Source: a virus
Reading direction: 5' to 3' (one strand)
IMG/VR virus record: IMGVR_UViG_3300025864_000001
Location: 14,469-78,468 of that record
DNA length: 64,000 bases
Part shown: positions 8,613 to 18,453 of the stretch, piece after piece
How the letters are laid out: each line of letters opens with the position of its first letter
Position numbering within the stretch: position 1 is the first letter of the stretch
Position numbers and translations under genes: made by a program
The notes under the pieces: model-generated
Database searches by the model: none
What the model was told of the DNA's origin: nothing
The model's input: the letters and a program-made list of their open reading frames with translations, nothing else

Positions 8613-9119
8613 TTATTCGCTTGTTAACGTGCCATCATCAGTAAAATAATACTCATTCGCTTCAATGGTATCAATTATTGCCTCCTCGCTGGTCCTGTAC
8701 TCGTACTCCTTTGTTAATATTATCCTGTAATCCTCACAAAGAGACTTTAAAAATTCATCTTCTAACTCTTCTATCTCTTCCTCTACTGATTGTTCTATCC
8801 TTCCATTTTCTCCGGTCAATGCTTCAAGGTCATTTAAAAACTCTTTTGCTGTGTCAAATGTATCACATTCATTGCCGTGACTTACTTTTATTAGTTCGGC
8901 TGTGTCTGCTGCTGATACGATAAAATTACCTTTTACATAACTTGCTCTATCAATGTCAAAGCCTGTTATCTTAAAGTTGATATTTTCTGCATCCTCATAT
9001 GTTGATTCAAACCAGTTAGAAAATTCCACATTAATAGCTGATAGTTTATTTATTGCGTTCTTTTTTGCCTCTTCTGATAGTTCGCTGAACTGATACAGGT
9101 TAATAGTTTTTGTTTTCAT
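8613..9119 (-). CDS. acidic early phage protein
   Basis: LYQFSELSEEAK...YEYRTSEEAI...ANEYYFTDDG family pattern; strongly acidic. Confidence 0.7.
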   Translation of the reverse strand: MKTKTINLYQFSELSEEAKKNAINKLSAINVEFSNWFESTYEDAENINFKITGFDIDRASYVKGNFIVSAADTAELIKVSHGNECDTFDTAKEFLNDLEALTGENGRIEQSVEEEIEELEDEFLKSLCEDYRIILTKEYEYRTSEEAIIDTIEANEYYFTDDGTLTSE

Positions 9120-9143
9120 CTTATTTTGTGTTTTTGGTGCCGG

Positions 9144-9416
9144 TTAATATTGTTCTGTAACATCATATACAAGCTGTTCCCATCTATCTAAACCGTTCGG
9201 GCGTCCTCCTTCTTTTAATTTGGGGCACAGTTTAATAAACTTAATAGCATATTGTAAGGCCTTTAATAGGTCCGGGGCTGCTGCAAGTAGTCGCGCGTTG
9301 GCTTCCTGTTCTTCGTTATCCTTATCAAAATAAGGAATAAGGGCAAGCGTTTTCCCTGTCTCTTGTGGGTAAATTTGTCCGTCCTTAGTTATCCATGTTC
9401 CTTCTGTGTGTTTCAT
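9144..9416 (-). CDS. early protein, MKHT.G.W / ANARLIAAAPDLL family
   Basis: MKHTEGTW...EANARLLAAAPDLL. Confidence 0.75.
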   Translation of the reverse strand: MKHTEGTWITKDGQIYPQETGKTLALIPYFDKDNEEQEANARLLAAAPDLLKALQYAIKFIKLCPKLKEGGRPNGLDRWEQLVYDVTEQY

Positions 9417-9458
9417 CGTCTTGTGTGTTTAATGGTTAATACTCTGGTTTACTGTTTA

Positions 9459-9641
9459 TTATAGTCCGCAATCTGCATCAGACTGCATTTCATACTCTAA
9501 TTCGTAGAGTTCACTGGCTCTGTCTGCGCAATCCTCGCAGATATTGACATCAAGAGGGCTAATTTCCCCGTTCTCTATCATATCAACCTCTGTTTTAGAT
9601 AGTTGAAATTTCTCTTTACATATAATACAGGTGCGTTTCAT
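9459..9641 (-). CDS. small zinc-ribbon protein
   Basis: CIIC...CEDC. Confidence 0.65.
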   Translation of the reverse strand: MKRTCIICKEKFQLSKTEVDMIENGEISPLDVNICEDCADRASELYELEYEMQSDADCGL

Positions 9642-9652
9642 AGTGTTGTGTT

Positions 9653-9745
9653 TTAAAGGTTTTCAACTATTGTTTCTATTTCTTCATCCGTAGACCCTTG
9701 GGCCCTGAGGTCCTTTACAAATTCAATTAATTCACTGGTTTTCAT
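9653..9745 (-). CDS. 30-aa early peptide (not in the ORF track)
   Basis: MKTSELIEFVKDLRAQGSTDEEIETIVENL, preceded by the AAAAACACAAAC motif seen before neighbouring genes. Confidence 0.55.
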   Translation of the reverse strand: MKTSELIEFVKDLRAQGSTDEEIETIVENL

Positions 9746-9778
9746 TGGTTTGTGTTTTTAATTAATACTAATCAGATG

Positions 9779-9893
9779 TAAATGTAATACATATATATCA
9801 TATAAACAAATCTTTTTACATATTTATTTTGCATTATTATATTATTATTATTGCTTTTTACTTGTTTATATGATATTTATAGTTTTACTTTGT
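9779..9893. promoter_or_regulatory. divergent early promoters sharing a 15-bp inverted repeat
   Basis: ATATCATATAAACAA (9795-9809) and TTGTTTATATGATAT (9862-9876), each followed by a near-consensus -7 box. Confidence 0.65.
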
Positions 9894-9919
9894 ACTGTTA
9901 ACCAATAAAAACACACACA

Positions 9920-10300
9920 ATGAAAATTAAAAGCAGTAACGCAAGTAGTTTTTTAAATCATCTCAAAACATTGGCCTATCTTGGTAATGTTGATGAGTGG
10001 AAAGCAGAGAACCTTTACAAGAAATTAAAAAGGATCGAATCAAGAATGAACCGTTTAATGTGCGATGAGTGCAACGGGACCAGACCAGGCACCGAAGAAG
10101 AGAACGAAAAGAAAGACGAAAAAGTAATTGATCGAGTTAAAAAGCTCCTTCCGGTTGCTACTGGCGTATTCCTTAACGGGGACCCTCGCGGCTATACTCT
10201 TAAAATCAAGAGCGAAGATGTTAAAACTTTGAACGAGGCCGGCAAAATCAATATTTATCAGGATTGGGGCGGCTATGGTATTTTGGCCCCTGAATTTTAA
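9920..10300 (+). CDS. early hypothetical protein (NGDPRGY family)
   Basis: 126 aa with LNGDPRGYTLKI; first gene after the rightward promoter. Confidence 0.75.
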   Translation: MKIKSSNASSFLNHLKTLAYLGNVDEWKAENLYKKLKRIESRMNRLMCDECNGTRPGTEEENEKKDEKVIDRVKKLLPVATGVFLNGDPRGYTLKIKSEDVKTLNEAGKINIYQDWGGYGILAPEF

Positions 10301-10301
10301 A

Positions 10302-10356
10302 GGTTTGCTGATGATTGTTAAATACATGAAAGCGGGCTAATTACCCGCTACAAACC
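10302..10356 (+). ncRNA. hammerhead ribozyme (type I)
   Basis: stem I GGTTTG/CAAACC, CTGATGA core, short stem II, GAAA, stem III GCGGG/CCCGC, CUA cleavage triplet. Confidence 0.85.
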
Positions 10357-10373
10357 AATAAAAACACAAAGAA

Positions 10374-10637
10374 ATGACAAACACACTAATTAACACAGAT
10401 TACCGGACCTATTTAGTAAGGTTCAAATTTCAATCAACATACTGCCGTTTTATCGTGCAGGGTTCCGGGCTTATGGACTGCTTAAAACAGTATGATCAGA
10501 ACGGGGTGGAATCCATTAAAGAATTTGACCCGCTCAAAAGTACATTTAAACGCATTTCCCGGGCTGATCTCCTGAAGGCGTTCAAATGGGAAACAGAAAC
10601 GTATGAGTATTTAAAAAATCATTACTTTTTCAAATAG
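10374..10637 (+). CDS. early hypothetical protein
   Basis: 87 aa; upstream 16-mer identical to that before gene 9920. Confidence 0.75.
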   Translation: MTNTLINTDYRTYLVRFKFQSTYCRFIVQGSGLMDCLKQYDQNGVESIKEFDPLKSTFKRISRADLLKAFKWETETYEYLKNHYFFK

Positions 10638-10708
10638 TTTTTATTGGTTGCTTGGTTAATACTTTGCGCCTGGGGTGTGTTCCTGGGCGCAATTAACCAC
10701 GCTTAACC
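10637..10708 (+). ncRNA. long hairpin with segments antisense to early-gene start regions
   Basis: GTTTTTATTGGTT, TGGTTAATACT and GTGTGTT complementary to early start regions; long imperfect stem. Confidence 0.55.
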
Positions 10709-10723
10709 GTAAATATTAATATT

Positions 10724-10924
10724 ATGGCACGAAAAAAATGTACTTTGGAATCTATCGCGCTGACTACTTTAAAGCCTGGTGCGTTCCTTTACTCTCATAA
10801 GGCCGATAAAGATTTAACGGCTATATCTCATTATTATCGGGTGCGGATAGCTACTGAGCGTTTAATATTGATCAATCCGCAGACCTGTAAAGCTCAAAAA
10901 ATTACAAAAGTTACTTTACTCTAA
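10724..10924 (+). CDS. early hypothetical protein
   Basis: 66-aa ORF. Confidence 0.6.
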   Translation: MARKKCTLESIALTTLKPGAFLYSHKADKDLTAISHYYRVRIATERLILINPQTCKAQKITKVTLL

Positions 10925-11384
10925 TACCTTATATTATGGAATATCTTTATTTATTAATTCCTGGTGTTCTGATCCTGATGATCTTCTTACCCTCTATTAA
11001 ACCCTTTAATACTGTGAAAAAATGACAATAGAACGCACCGCAACCAATTTAATGACCGGACAAATAAGAACGGTTATTTTTACACGTGTTGAGGATCATA
11101 ATTTTAATATTGCCAATCTCTGGCGGTCCTCTGATGGTGGTTATTATACCTTTGGGATCCTCGGATGGTTTAACGTTGATAAATACCTGAAACATGATTA
11201 AGCGCGTTTTAAGGCATCAATTTGCCCCGTTCCTACTTATCCCCCTGTCTTGTATCTATTGGGGTGTGTTCTGGGCCCTGGGGGTCCTGCTGGGCTTAAT
11301 GTAGCCGGGAGAATGCAGGGCCAAAGGTTTTAATATTACAATCAAATAGTATCACAATTTTTTAATTTATAAAAACACAGAAAA

Positions 11385-11597
11385 ATGAAAGAAATTAAAT
11401 TTAACAGAAATACGTCATTTTTAGGGCGTAACGGCATGTTTAAACAATCCGGTATCCGAATAAATGAGATTACTGGCGCAATAGCTTTGTACCCGATCAC
11501 CAGTAAAGGACAAATCGGACGAGCATGTTTAACTATTCCAAAAGATAAGTTACAGGAATTTATGAATGCACTATTATTAACCCCTCTCACAGATTAA
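11385..11597 (+). CDS. early hypothetical protein
   Basis: 70 aa; AAAAACACAG upstream motif. Confidence 0.65.
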   Translation: MKEIKFNRNTSFLGRNGMFKQSGIRINEITGAIALYPITSKGQIGRACLTIPKDKLQEFMNALLLTPLTD

Positions 11598-11668
11598 GTT
11601 TTTGCCCGTTACAAGTCGGGAATAATACAGAGTACAGGGGCGCAAGCCTCTGAAATGTAACCAAAAAC
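11598..11668 (+). ncRNA. twister ribozyme (type P3)
   Basis: P3 GTTTTTG/CAAAAAC, P4 CCCG/CGGG with loop TTACAAGT, P2 TACA/TGTA, GAGTA, P1 CAGGGGC-GCAA-GCCTCTG; both pseudoknots (UAC/GUA, GU/AC) pair. Confidence 0.88.
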
Positions 11669-11677
11669 ATAGAAATT

Positions 11678-12028
11678 ATGAAAGATCAAAAACACACAGC
11701 AGGAAATTGGACACGTGGAACTCGTACCAATACAAAAGAATGGATGCAAATAGTTAGTGATGGTATTATACCAATTGCAGAAGTAAAACCATTACATAAA
11801 ACCGGATACAGAGAAAAGGATGACTTTCAAACAGAAGAAGCAAACGCAAAATTAATTTGCGCAGCCCCAGACTTACTAAAAGTTTGCATTGACTTACTTA
11901 ACGCATTTGTCCACAAAGAGAATGACAAGAAAGGCAACCAGACAAGAACGGACATTTTTAAATACTGTCCTGAATTTGGGGAAATAGCAGTAGCAGCAAG
12001 ACACGCAATCGAAAAAGCAACGGAATAA
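11678..12028 (+). CDS. early protein, ANAKLIAAAPDLL family
   Basis: KHTAGNW...EANAKLICAAPDLL...KATE. Confidence 0.75.
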   Translation: MKDQKHTAGNWTRGTRTNTKEWMQIVSDGIIPIAEVKPLHKTGYREKDDFQTEEANAKLICAAPDLLKVCIDLLNAFVHKENDKKGNQTRTDIFKYCPEFGEIAVAARHAIEKATE

Positions 12029-12149
12029 TGAAAACAATTTGTACACATTGCGGGAAAAAACAAACCGCAAAAGAAAAAGAGTATTCTTTAAATAGCGCAA
12101 AATGTAAGTTTTGTAAAAAAGAAGGTACGTTAATAGAAATAACAAAGCA

Positions 12150-12392
12150 ATGAATAAACCAACCTACACACCGGAACAGATGAACGGCAAATATATTGCC
12201 TGTTCTGTATTACTCGATCCTCCCGGCTTGGGTGCAGTCGAATATGCCACAGGACCACGCGAGGGATTGCCCGTACTCTACAATTCCATAGCATCAGCAG
12301 AAGATGATTTGTTTTGGGATGACTTATGGGATCACATTATACCCGCAAGTGAATATTTTGAGCGGGTGGCAACAAATAATTTTAAGTTTTAA
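12150..12392 (+). CDS. hypothetical protein
   Basis: 80-aa ORF. Confidence 0.6.
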   Translation: MNKPTYTPEQMNGKYIACSVLLDPPGLGAVEYATGPREGLPVLYNSIASAEDDLFWDDLWDHIIPASEYFERVATNNFKF

Positions 12393-12413
12393 AATATATA
12401 AAAAAGCATAATT

Positions 12414-12692
12414 ATGAAACACACACAAGGAGAATGGATTATGCACAATAACGTGTTTAATTCTGTTGTAATCACAAAAATAGACAGTGGTTATAAAGTT
12501 ATCGGATCATTCACAAATGATAATAAATTGATCCCAGAAAACGAAATGAGGGCAAATGCAAAACTCTGCGCAGCAGCCCCTGACTTACTGGAGTCCTGTA
12601 TCAAATTATTTGAAATTGTTGATACAAGATCCCAATCCGATGAAGATATTTGCTTCATGGCATATAAAACCATTAAAAAAGCCACCGAATAA
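12414..12692 (+). CDS. early protein, ANAKLIAAAPDLL family
   Basis: MKHTQGEW...ANAKLCAAAPDLL...KKATE. Confidence 0.75.
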   Translation: MKHTQGEWIMHNNVFNSVVITKIDSGYKVIGSFTNDNKLIPENEMRANAKLCAAAPDLLESCIKLFEIVDTRSQSDEDICFMAYKTIKKATE

Positions 12693-12982
12693 TGCCACAA
12701 TTTAACCTCTTTGGAGAGATAGACGTACAGACCATGCCGGAGCCGGAAATGGTTTCCGAAATGCCTGAGCCTGAGATGCCGCACCCTCGCAAGTCAAAGA
12801 AGAGAAAGTCTTTTGATATTGGCATTTGTCGTGCGTGTGGTCAGTTACTACTCGATGATCCTGATAACACCAGGATTAAGATTGATGATGAGTTATGTGA
12901 GGATTGCGATGCTACATTAAGGGCAAAATACAGTCAGTATAAAAATTTTGCTCTTATACGAGCATTGAGAATGCGTAAATAA
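12692..12982 (+). CDS. zinc-ribbon protein with an MPEPEM repeat
   Basis: CRAC..CEDC; duplicated MPEPEM. Confidence 0.6.
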   Translation: MPQFNLFGEIDVQTMPEPEMVSEMPEPEMPHPRKSKKRKSFDIGICRACGQLLLDDPDNTRIKIDDELCEDCDATLRAKYSQYKNFALIRALRMRK

Positions 12983-12997
12983 CTTAAAAATAATAAC

Positions 12998-13236
12998 ATG
13001 AAAACTATTGAAGTTTCAGCCAAATCAATGACTGAATTTATTAAAAGCACAAAACTTCATTTTGATAATATTGATAAAATTATGAAGTTGCCGGAATCTA
13101 ATGAAAGAGGCAGGATGATAGCCAAAGAAATGAAATGAATCGGATTAATTTCGATTATGATGCTTTTCTTCATTTTGCGCTTAATATCCCAATGGACAAA
13201 CTCCAATCGGTGAGAAATAAAAGTTTCAAATTATAA
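12998..13236 (+). pseudogene. 77-aa gene interrupted by a 5-bp duplication
   Basis: GAAAT GAAAT at 13127-13136; removing one copy gives one open frame from ATG 12998 to TAA 13236. Confidence 0.55.
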
Positions 13237-13246
13237 AAACAATATT

Positions 13247-13477
13247 ATGAAAACAAATCCAAATAATCCAATTAATGCAATAGTAGGAGACAGTACAAAA
13301 TTTGCCGGACTTACCAAGCGTGAATACTTTGCAGCAATGGCAATGCAGGGACTTCTTGCAGGACATTACGAATACTTTACAGGTAATGCAGATGTTTCTG
13401 TACCAATGGAAATTGCTAAATATGCAGTTTATAATGCAGATGCTTTAATTGAAGAACTTAATAAATCAGAATTATGA
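13247..13477 (+). CDS. conserved phage protein (GLTKREYFAAMAMQG family)
   Basis: GLTKREYFAAMAMQGLL...AV..ADALIEELN. Confidence 0.8.
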   Translation: MKTNPNNPINAIVGDSTKFAGLTKREYFAAMAMQGLLAGHYEYFTGNADVSVPMEIAKYAVYNADALIEELNKSEL

Positions 13478-13974
13478 AAAAACTATTTTTTTTACTTTTG
13501 ATCAGCGTGTCATTCTCAGCAATGGCACAGCGTTATCCCTTTGCCCTCTATGTATCACACCAGCCGGTTGACTTTGGTATTGGTGTGCGTGGTGACTATT
13601 ATATACATGGCTTAGGCTTGTATAGCTCTGTGTCTTATGGCAATTGGGGACTTTACAGACAGTATGATATAAAACACCATGTAAAGCTATCAACGGGTGT
13701 GTTATTGCCTCTGCCAGATTATAATGGTGCTTCATTTGATGTTACTGCCGGCATTAATTATCATCTTTTAGGATCTGTTATGCTCGATAACTCCCCTCTT
13801 GACCCTAAAATCTTTAACCCTTGGAGTTTTGAGTTAGGGATTACAGCTAAATTAAAGCGTTTTTCATTAGGTTTGCGCACTGACATTTTGCGTTGGGAAC
13901 CATGCGTGGACGTAGGTTTTAAACTATTTAAAGGACAATATTATGACAAAGCAAAAAGTAAATCCTGTAAGTAA
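13474..13974 (+). CDS. secreted, probable outer-membrane beta-barrel protein
   Basis: Sec signal MKKLFFLLLISVSFSAMA; alternating aromatic/Gly beta-strands. Confidence 0.55.
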   Translation: MKKLFFLLLISVSFSAMAQRYPFALYVSHQPVDFGIGVRGDYYIHGLGLYSSVSYGNWGLYRQYDIKHHVKLSTGVLLPLPDYNGASFDVTAGINYHLLGSVMLDNSPLDPKIFNPWSFELGITAKLKRFSLGLRTDILRWEPCVDVGFKLFKGQYYDKAKSKSCK

Positions 13975-14167
13975 TCGTAAAATGTGGTGCTATTATGCGC
14001 CCGATGGGTGGCCACAAGTAAGAACATTAGCTGAGTCTCGAGTTGAATGTAGGCTGATGCTTAATAAATATGACTATCCTGCTACATGGCAGAAAGCTGA
14101 AAGTCAAGGTGCTTTTATACACAAAGTTGTTGTAACAATAATTGAACCTTTAAAATTAAGCCAATGA
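13943..14167 (+). CDS. hypothetical protein
   Basis: 74-aa ORF. Confidence 0.55.
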   Translation: MTKQKVNPVSNRKMWCYYAPDGWPQVRTLAESRVECRLMLNKYDYPATWQKAESQGAFIHKVVVTIIEPLKLSQ

Positions 14168-14979: not shown

Positions 14980-15018
14980 GGGTGCCGGTTTGTGTGTTCC
15001 GGTGCCCTTTCTTTTTTT
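14980..15018 (+). terminator. intrinsic terminator with a loop antisense to early start motifs
   Basis: GGGTGCCGG-TTTGTGTGTT-CCGGTGCCC followed by a T-tract. Confidence 0.7.
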
Positions 15019-15045
15019 CTAAACACTATAATCAAATTAATTGTA

Positions 15046-17205: not shown

Positions 17206-17236
17206 AAGCACCTCGTAAATGGGGTGCTTCTTTTTT
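17206..17236. terminator. intrinsic terminator between convergent units
   Basis: AAGCACCTC/GGGGTGCTT stem plus T-tract. Confidence 0.7.
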
Positions 17237-17253
17237 ATGATGATTAGTATTAA

Positions 17254-18453
17254 TTACCTTATTTCTTCTATATTTCCGACTTGAGCCGTGAATGTTCCTG
17301 AGCTACAAATCACTGTTAGATTTATATACCAAATTCCTGATATAGTAATTGCAGGAGTAGTGGGTGCTGCCACATAAGTTGGTAATTGAACTGCTCCGGC
17401 ATAGCCAACTCCCTCTGCTTTAATTGTGGTTGCTGACCGGATAGTTATTAATACATCAAATCCCGCCCTCGCATTTGCCGCCTGTGCTGCTGACGTTACC
17501 GCCGTCCAATCAATTGTATCAGAGATTGTCCCTAAATTCCCGCATCTTACTTTAAATATCAATGTACCTGTTGACGATGAATTACCAATGATCCATGCTC
17601 GGAAAGTTGATCCTACACTTGCACGTGCTGCTGGTATTTGTAATTGAAGTAATACCTTTTCAGTTGTGCCGGAAGTAACCACCGGAGCCAATAAATTTGC
17701 AAATAGCCTTACAGGGGCGTCAGTCCCATTTTGTCCGGGAACTCCTTGATCCCCTTTATCTCCTTTTAATCCATCAAAATAGTCAATATTTTTAACAGGG
17801 GTATTACCGGGAATACCTTGTATGCCCTGATCTCCTTTAAGTCCTTGCGAACCATCATTGCCGGGCAAACCTTGATCTCCCTTGTCTCCTTTTGAACCCG
17901 GAGTCCCAGGAGCACCGTCTTCTCCATTGAAATAATCAACATTAAGCACAGGAGTACGCCCATCTTCTCCGTCCGCGCCTGCCTGCCCTGTTGCACCATC
18001 ATTACCAGGGATGCCCTGCATGCCTCGTGAACCCGACTGTCCTGCCTCCCCATTTGTACCATTTTCACCTTTAAGGGATAATAACCATTCCGATTCTATC
18101 CCCGTAAAACCATTCTCAACTGCTACCTGATATGCTGACTTACCATCAGTAGACGGAATTTGATCTGCAATAGTGGCAATCTGTTCCGGGGTCAACTCAA
18201 CTGCAGGCGGTGGTATTTGCGCAGCAATCTCCATTATCACAGCAGGCACCACGGATAATGCTATTTCTGCTATATGCCCAAGTAGATTAATAACACCCCA
18301 GCTACCACGAGGAATCTGAGCCGATGCTGTGCCAATAACAACATCTCCGAGATTAGCAAAATCAAATGAGTCTTTCTTTGTGGCATGTAGCTTAACCGGA
18401 TCACCAATTTTGATCGCACGTCCAGAAGCGTTTAGAAGTCTTTTCTGTGCCAC
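17254..18453 (-). CDS. collagen-like fibre protein
   Basis: G-X-Y repeats, DGKSAYQVAVENGF.G.E.EWL.SLKG and TPV..DYF motifs; own promoter box 18473-18480; GTG start. Confidence 0.8.
   Translation of the reverse strand: MAQKRLLNASGRAIKIGDPVKLHATKKDSFDFANLGDVVIGTASAQIPRGSWGVINLLGHIAEIALSVVPAVIMEIAAQIPPPAVELTPEQIATIADQIPSTDGKSAYQVAVENGFTGIESEWLLSLKGENGTNGEAGQSGSRGMQGIPGNDGATGQAGADGEDGRTPVLNVDYFNGEDGAPGTPGSKGDKGDQGLPGNDGSQGLKGDQGIQGIPGNTPVKNIDYFDGLKGDKGDQGVPGQNGTDAPVRLFANLLAPVVTSGTTEKVLLQLQIPAARASVGSTFRAWIIGNSSSTGTLIFKVRCGNLGTISDTIDWTAVTSAAQAANARAGFDVLITIRSATTIKAEGVGYAGAVQLPTYVAAPTTPAITISGIWYINLTVICSSGTFTAQVGNIEEIR

Follow-up and report, generated by a model that had tools for sequence, protein, structure and literature searches.

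Hammerhead and twister ribozymes and a long hairpin at gene boundaries in the early region of an uncultured phage

Structured RNAs in three gaps of the early block

The window analyzed here is a stretch of 64,000 nucleotides (nt), bases 14469-78468 of the 78.5-kb virus record IMGVR_UViG_3300025864_000001, and our subject is a set of three structured RNAs lying between small genes of its plus-strand early block: a type I hammerhead ribozyme, a long imperfect hairpin, and a type-P3 twister ribozyme (Table 1). A first-pass annotation, made from the letters of the sequence, had placed these elements in gaps at 10301-10373, 10638-10723, and 11598-11677 (73, 86, and 80 nt), each starting at or within 1 nt of the upstream stop codon; the open reading frame (ORF) map and the folds agree with this placement. 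The same annotation had joined the three elements into a single control circuit, which our results do not bear out.

The core of the hammerhead is complete at 10308-10350, with CUGAUGA, GAAA, A15.1-U16.1, and H17 = A. Stems I and III are perfect, the former with 6 bp and the latter with A15.1-U16.1 and 5 G-C-rich pairs, and stem II consists of the closing pair U10.1.U11.1 and 3 bp, one of which is G-C. A covariance model (R1) built from eight other phage hammerheads, from which the window copy was left out, scored the window copy at 43.7 bits (E ~2e-8 in 606 kb), in support of the identity first proposed; this score lies inside the range of 41.9 to 76.4 bits of the ten copies in L093 and L079 (G and L numbers are our own handles for records and loci), whose median is ~67. 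An alignment of 15 hammerheads had 93.7% paired cells, with double changes in 15 of 17 pairs, and a loose type I descriptor found a match in 2 of 1,000 dinucleotide shuffles of the whole window. A search of the window with R1 gave no second hammerhead. The Rfam hammerhead models had no match at 9400-12200 even at E<=10, but little can be read into this, because ~13 canonical type I hammerheads of other phage contigs also escape Rfam, with sub-threshold matches only. We regard the hammerhead at 10302-10356 as very probably real.

The mispair that closes stem II, U10.1.U11.1, is also found in three other complete phage hammerheads, two in L080 and one in L082. These copies lie at L080 2392-2451 and 2710-2770 (-) and at L082 121-167 (-). 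The inner stem II pairs of the two L080 copies covary, differing on both sides while still being paired. To judge from these sequences, U10.1.U11.1 looks like a naturally recurring variant, one that standard screens would reject and that may be tolerated.

For the twister, the match to Rfam RF03154 (59.6 bits against a gathering score of 39.9; model positions 1-73) makes membership in the twister-P3 family certain, as the first-pass annotation had it. Cleavage is predicted at 11653/11654 by alignment to the U/AA step of the consensus. The closest comparison is provided by a relative, G001, which has a twister-P3 of 51 bits that differs from the window copy by three double compensatory changes in P1 (A-U>U-A, G-C>C-G, and G-U>C-G); a third P1 variant is seen in metagenome loose ends at 11631.

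The hairpin has a minimum free energy (MFE) of -35.3 kcal/mol and a z score of -5.25, and an equally good fold arose in none of 200 shuffles. Its tail is AACCGUAAAUAUUAAU, with no U-tract, and the leader of the 66-aa gene forms its 3' arm. As an intrinsic terminator it was rejected, since it is absent from the terminator scan and its stem lacks a U-run; canonical terminators, both with U-runs, end the plus block near 15020 and at 17206-17229, and the presence of such terminators in the same block indicates that the hairpin is of another kind. Pistol, hatchet, twister-sister, hairpin, and hepatitis delta virus-like ribozymes were likewise rejected, there being no Rfam match at E<=10 in 9400-12200. 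Considered as a putative RNase III site, which would call for about two turns of double-stranded RNA with internal loops, the hairpin has stacked segments of 8 and 11 bp on either side of a 4-nt bulge, as part of its ~34 bp. Hairpins also directly follow the stop codon of the homologue of the 87-aa gene in L076, L077, and L078, but they are unrelated in sequence; RNAalifold found no structure common to the hairpins of the window, L077, and L078, whose sequences do not align. The hairpin is most likely a processing site for a host nuclease (RNase III-like), a 3' stability element, or a stem for translational coupling. Other gaps of the plus block (10922-11024, 11302-11387, 13136-13249, and 13972-14166) have no significant structure, and the remainder of the genome (L001) had no Rfam match at E<=1.

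The three elements are set among leaders of a common type. The first-pass annotation had noted that early genes on both strands share a leader motif and that both ribozymes use part of it as a stem strand, and both observations hold. AAAAACAC occurs 14 times against 4.6 expected, a count that 0 of 100 shuffles reached, and to either side of the divergent region about nine genes in all have looser AACC..AAACAC forms ahead of them. One strand of each ribozyme shares bases with this leader: the 3' strand of stem I in the hammerhead (CAAACC) and that of the outer stem in the twister (CAAAAAC).

It had further been proposed that the hairpin RNA silences such leaders, a proposal that found no support. 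The complement of the hairpin to the leaders amounts to 12 to 13 nt, with an exact 13-nt complement at 10637-10649; of 2,000 shuffles, 2.1% reached 12 nt or more and 0.7% reached 13 nt or more, so that the complementarity is only modestly unusual. The two supposed antisense tracts are in the wrong order to form a single antiparallel duplex with the leader of the minus-strand gene at 9416, and repeats of 11 to 14 nt are common in these 9 kb (26 direct and 38 inverted families). Given the non-collinear tracts, the modest complementarity, and the failure to find the boundaries of a separate RNA, we do not support a reading of the hairpin as a trans-acting antisense RNA; a simpler, cis explanation of the 13-nt complement is that a stem strand faces leader-like sequence. 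An mRNA of the 87-aa gene cleaved at the hammerhead (10351-10726) is predicted, in both the MFE and the centroid fold, to form a panhandle of 13 bp between 10353-10365 and 10637-10649. This complementarity has no counterpart in L077 or L078, and for that reason we give it little weight.

Table 1. Features of the early region, in window coordinates
Feature	Position	Strand	Remarks
Divergent intergenic region	9746..9919	.	Between minus- and plus-strand early blocks; presumed promoter/control region (ORF map)
126-aa ORF, no family	9920..10300	+	First gene of the plus block; ORF list
Type I hammerhead ribozyme	10302..10356	+	Starts 1 nt past the upstream TAA; predicted cut 10350/10351
A/C-rich leader of the 87-aa gene (AACCAATAAAAACAC...)	10353..10373	+	Overlaps the 3' strand of hammerhead stem I; repeat family D1
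87-aa ORF, conserved hypothetical protein	10374..10637	+	Homologues at 52-75% identity
Long imperfect hairpin, ~34 bp	10635..10718	+	Begins on the stop codon and ends 5 nt before ATG 10724
66-aa ORF	10724..10924	+	Homologue in G001 downstream of the G001 twister
70-aa ORF	11385..11597	+	Directly upstream of the twister
Type-P3 twister ribozyme	11598..11668	+	First base after the TAA of the 70-aa ORF
116-aa ORF, phrog_1273 family (function unknown)	11678..12028	+	PHROG match 2.2e-13; downstream of the twister
Canonical intrinsic terminator (GC stem and U-run)	14980..15030	+	Fold; ends the first plus-strand unit

The window also encodes a 2619-aa ORF, tail and muzzle-like genes, RecE/RecT-like genes, and a primase-helicase, and its DNA is found in peat and soil metagenomes. 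The phage is uncultured; the nearest cultured relatives of the primase, at 29% identity or less, belong to phages of Flavobacterium, Tenacibaculum, Cellulophaga, and Riemerella, and the host of the lineage is probably a member of the Bacteroidota. In the ORF map, leftward genes start from 9745 and rightward genes from 9920, and the interval between them is therefore presumed to be a divergent control region. An inverted repeat of 19 nt (9791-9809 and 9862-9880) lies within it, and its bases 9792-9893 are 96% identical to 6295-6396 of the relative G004 (G004:6295-6396, which is L063), although the primase of G004 is only 60% identical. These ~100 nt at 9792-9893 are a candidate for a common promoter, operator, or origin module, or for a recent exchange. 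At the two strand-switch points that bound the plus block, 9759-9774 and 17241-17256, TAATTAATACTAATCA and its complement make up a perfect inverted repeat of 16 nt, which could be the mark of an inversion of the 7.5-kb block, either ancestral or programmed.

The 126-aa ORF had no PHROG match, and neither the 126-aa nor the 116-aa ORF gained a relative in single-protein scans of IMG/VR; a homologue of the former in L075 shares its C-terminal peptide and sits upstream of a homologue of the 87-aa gene. A blastn search of 9000-13000 against the phage collection gave no match. In the 70-aa ORF, 11 of 11 listed metagenome variant sites in 11474-11540 are third codon positions, and because variants fall almost only there, we take it to be a real coding gene. 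Two tiny hydrophobic ORFs lie inside what would otherwise count as gaps, at 10937-11017 (26 aa) and 11194-11304 (36 aa). The first of these has a 33-aa homologue (L057 17058-17159) directly behind the G001 twister, which makes it likely to be a real gene for a membrane peptide.

Independent occurrence in related phages and metagenomes

A primase search yielded 43 related loci, and five large relatives (G001-G005) were examined whole. The distribution of the elements was counted in 10 primase relatives that are at least 76% complete, among them G001-G005 and G008-G011: a twister occurs only in G001, a hammerhead only in G011, and both classes in none of the 10. No twister was found in G002-G005, in 16 further primase-related records, or in four unrelated pattern-match records, and no hammerhead was found in G001-G005; hammerheads are present in G011 and also in the record of L079, G006, where a homologue of the 87-aa gene is found at 52% identity. 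With the hammerhead and the hairpin as queries, blastn against the five related genomes returned the short leader motif only.

The closest relative, G001, whose primase is 79% identical, has only the twister of the three elements, and has it among different gene neighbors: a RadC-like 151-aa gene stands on one side and a 33-aa membrane-peptide gene on the other, and the twister is 1 nt past the stop codon and 9 nt before the next ATG. In L075, homologues of the 126-aa and 87-aa genes stand ~30 nt apart with no hammerhead between them. No relative has a copy of the window hammerhead at the same place, and none keeps the trio, or even the pair of ribozymes, together. Retention in relatives had been named beforehand, in the first-pass annotation, as the check on a joint RNA-only circuit, and it went against the circuit. 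The three elements are thus not a co-evolved circuit, and each comes and goes independently. Other RNAs were met in the related records: G003 has a DUF805b RNA motif near its early region (L070 3582-3616; Rfam RF02914, 41.8 bits against a threshold of 35.6), and a tRNA lies at L069 16423-16495, and ARAGORN did not accept a tRNA-like stretch in L079 as a tRNA.

The positions that the ribozymes occupy are typical of phages. We surveyed the placement of 21 phage ribozymes (19 hammerheads and 2 twisters), for 19 of which the next ORF could be called. In 13 of 21 cases the ribozyme starts between -6 and +6 nt relative to the upstream stop codon, which indicates that stop-flush placement is a general trait of phage ribozymes in tightly packed genomes; the end lies 9 to 38 nt before the next ATG in 18 of the 19 with a called next ORF. 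The most extended case is G007, the record of L093, in which ten type I hammerheads lie between consecutive small genes, each followed by a leader of the AAACAAAACAAAAC type. The ten lie at L093 2808-6441 and G007:C1:7515-7574, in a row on a 32-kb viral contig; Rfam hammerhead models miss all ten copies at gathering scores. In the window itself, two coding-strand ribozymes lie between small phage genes within 1.4 kb, and the gene neighbors vary in G001, G011, and L075.

The two classes are also found at the same kind of position. The G011 hammerhead (L105 1501-1556 (-), which is G011:C1:40828-40883) abuts a stop codon and is followed after 15 nt by a phrog_1273 gene, whose identity is 74% to window 9144-9416 and 35% to the gene behind the window twister. 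In the window, the orthologue at 9144-9416 is preceded by a plain 42-nt gap, and the paralogue at 11678 by the twister. A hammerhead in G011 and a twister in the window therefore precede paralogous phrog_1273 genes, so that two classes serve the same kind of position, in a comparison that comprises one pair only.

Contigs from soil and peat metagenomes were mapped at a threshold of 80%. Contig depth peaks on 10293-10369 and 10601-10754, and the flanking genes are at or near zero; in the 10293-10369 bin, other contigs provide coverage in two soil runs from one sample, with little or no depth on the flanking genes. Contig joints run from 10362 to 10607 and from 10708 to 10978, in or next to the leader motif. 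Two readings suggest themselves: either the intergenic elements are more conserved than the genes, or they are linkers between swapped cassettes. Farther downstream, metagenome contigs of other phages start to match at about 11319-11322, covering a noncoding stretch and the start of the 70-aa gene.

Proposed cutting of an early transcript and the competing explanations

We favor, with a probability of roughly 60%, the explanation that the three RNAs are independent, modular gene-boundary elements at which a polycistronic early RNA is cut. The plus early block would be transcribed from 9746-9919 as one polycistronic RNA, with gene boundaries marked by RNA elements that are independent and interchangeable. 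The intergenic elements and their leaders also have the look of linkers, with an exchange of gene cassettes taking place between them. The hammerhead and the twister would cut themselves during or soon after transcription. Each cut should fall near the 3' end of the ribozyme, at 6 nt from it in the type I hammerhead and 15 nt in the P3 twister, and a cut so placed would leave the folded ribozyme body on the upstream message, whose 3' end would then be capped by a ribozyme bearing a 2',3'-cyclic phosphate. The next gene would begin at C10351 or A11654 with a 5'-OH and an unstructured, A/C-rich leader of 23 to 24 nt, the kind of leader that would be preferred in translation of the Bacteroidota type. 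The hairpin, neither a known ribozyme nor a canonical terminator, most likely serves at its own boundary as a stem for processing, stability, or coupling. The presence and family membership of the elements, their placement, their sporadic distribution, and the use of both classes at one kind of position are observed; in vivo cleavage, the fates of the two products, the effects on translation, and the role of the hairpin are what we infer here. The earlier claim that cleavage would expose the next message is supported in this form, with credible coding-strand, stop-flush ribozymes whose cleavage would leave a short unstructured leader; the idea itself had already been published for phage ribozyme clusters (PMC3088659, PMC6765202).

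Several points weigh against this explanation. The maps of cleavage and of transcripts are predictions from sequence. At N-1 the twister has A, whereas the consensus and G001 have U; this position may tolerate substitution in twisters. The conserved stretch at ~11322-11400 could be an internal promoter, in which case the twister would belong to a second transcript. Because the hairpin has no alignable homologue, its function is argued only from its position. Finally, the MFE fold favors an alternative pairing that uses the hammerhead core bases A6-A9, the weakness of stem II means that activity is not assured and that the window copy may be slow or dead, and U10.1.U11.1 breaks the published screening rule that no mispair may adjoin the core (PMC3088659), under which a 10.1-11.1 mispair is ground for rejection until tested.

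It is considerably less probable that the elements are mainly recombination linkers or selfish passengers, that is, short homologies at which early-gene cassettes are swapped, with RNA cleavage being incidental. A comparable proposal for cassette swapping exists for the PeSL cassettes of T4-type phages. In line with this explanation, the intergenic elements are common to more metagenome contigs than the genes between them, the joints at 10362 and 10708 fall in or beside the leader motif, the genes around the twister are ordered differently in the window and in G001, and the 100-nt divergent region is conserved at 96% against 60% for the primase. However, the strong structural covariation in the hammerhead family and the compensatory changes in twister P1 imply that selection has acted on the RNA fold and not on DNA homology only, and the joints may reflect not replacement but diverged homologous genes that fall below the mapping threshold.

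Somewhat less probable again is that the twister alone is functional, the hammerhead being a decaying relic and the hairpin, of no relation to the ribozymes, a generic attenuator or a generic hairpin for stability. A stem II with only U.U and 3 bp, of which one is G-C, a misfold that involves the core, an R1 score well below the median of the other copies, and the lack of a relative with this copy at the same place would all fit a relic. Against this, the core is intact and stems I and III are perfect, the same mispair recurs in L080 (twice) and L082 with the inner stem II pairs of L080 kept paired, and 10293-10369 is covered by other contigs in the two soil runs where its flanks are nearly empty.

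We consider it unlikely that the ribozymes build a cis-acting switch gated by translation, a reading that requires jointly that the stop-flush start be functional and that the tract at 10637-10649 toggle. In such a switch, a ribosome terminating at the upstream stop codon would sit on the 5' strand of each of three stems, namely stem I of the hammerhead, the outer stem of the twister, and the hairpin. Whether the RNA folds, and with that whether it is cut or sets the next leader free, would then report translation of the upstream ORF, and 10637-10649 would alternate between the leader of its own gene, in the 13-bp panhandle, and that of the next gene.

The integrated, protein-independent timing circuit of the first-pass annotation, in which the ribosome gates folding, cleavage activates the next message, and the hairpin silences leaders in trans, is very improbable: the start of all three elements 0 to 1 nt after a stop codon, the stop codon within the extended stem I, and the 13-nt exact leader complement speak for it, but the elements are not inherited together (G001 has its twister between other genes, and L075 has no hammerhead), nothing delimits a separate hairpin RNA, with the next ATG 5 nt behind the stem, the tracts facing the leader of the minus-strand gene at 9416 are misordered and of a commonly matched length, and stop-flush placement is too general among phage ribozymes to be specific for gating.

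Comparison with known systems

A layout with ribozymes at gene boundaries was already on record for phages in 2011: hammerheads occur in clusters around single genes or short gene blocks of prophages and phages, and they cleave polycistronic transcripts of ~2 kb in vitro (Perreault et al. 2011, PMC3088659); arrays were described in Clostridium scindens, Azorhizobium caulinodans, and Agrobacterium tumefaciens, and the haloviruses HF1/HF2 have a hammerhead 13 nt before the start of an early gene (PMC3088659). Like those clusters, the window has coding-strand ribozymes in gaps between small phage genes of varying identity, with cuts predicted a few to ~25 nt before the next start codon, and the role proposed there, the production of single-gene mRNAs, is the one that we favor here. 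It differs from them in that a type I hammerhead, a twister-P3, and a non-ribozyme hairpin alternate within 1.4 kb, in that the phage is an uncultured one from peat whose nearest cultured primase relatives, at <=29%, infect Bacteroidota, and in that its hammerhead carries the U.U mispair at 10.1/11.1 that the published filter would have set aside for testing.

The genomic association of twisters with hammerheads, as Weinberg, Weinberg & Hammann (2019, PMC6765202) summarize it from Roth et al. (2014), was in that summary also the basis for finding twister-sister, pistol, and hatchet. Neighborhoods shared by the two classes imply a need for cleavage by whatever motif (PMC6765202). The window conforms to this association, having two unrelated self-cleaving classes within a few kilobases and near phage genes, and goes beyond it in one swap case, the window twister and the G011 hammerhead ahead of paralogous phrog_1273 genes.

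For the hairpin, the nearest parallel lies elsewhere. Phage T7 has RNase III processing hairpins between its early genes (R0.3, R0.5, R1.1, and others), and the window hairpin resembles them as a long imperfect intergenic hairpin without a U-tract between early cistrons of what would be one transcript. Unlike them, it abuts a stop codon and the next leader and is conserved in position rather than in sequence, and its cutting by RNase III is a conjecture. RiboJ insulators and ribozyme-dependent translation in RNA viruses (PMC13725137) offer a parallel for the downstream product, since there, as is predicted here, self-cleavage fixes the 5' end and the leader of the following ORF; RiboJ is engineered, however, and the RNA-virus cases (PMC13725137) come from eukaryotic viruses, whereas the window is known from sequence alone.

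What self-cleaving ribozymes are for in phages and bacteria has yet to be settled (PMC6765202), and the locus leaves the known picture unchanged. It is a compact additional example, environmental in origin and from a lineage that probably infects Bacteroidota and has no close cultured relative, in which both ribozymes have the permutation that would leave the body on the upstream message and a short A/C-rich leader to the next gene. This permutation, the recurrent U.U 10.1/11.1 variant of phage hammerheads, and the finding of a hammerhead and a twister ahead of paralogous genes in two relatives could all guide experiments, and the last of these supports the view that it is the cut that matters and not the motif that makes it.

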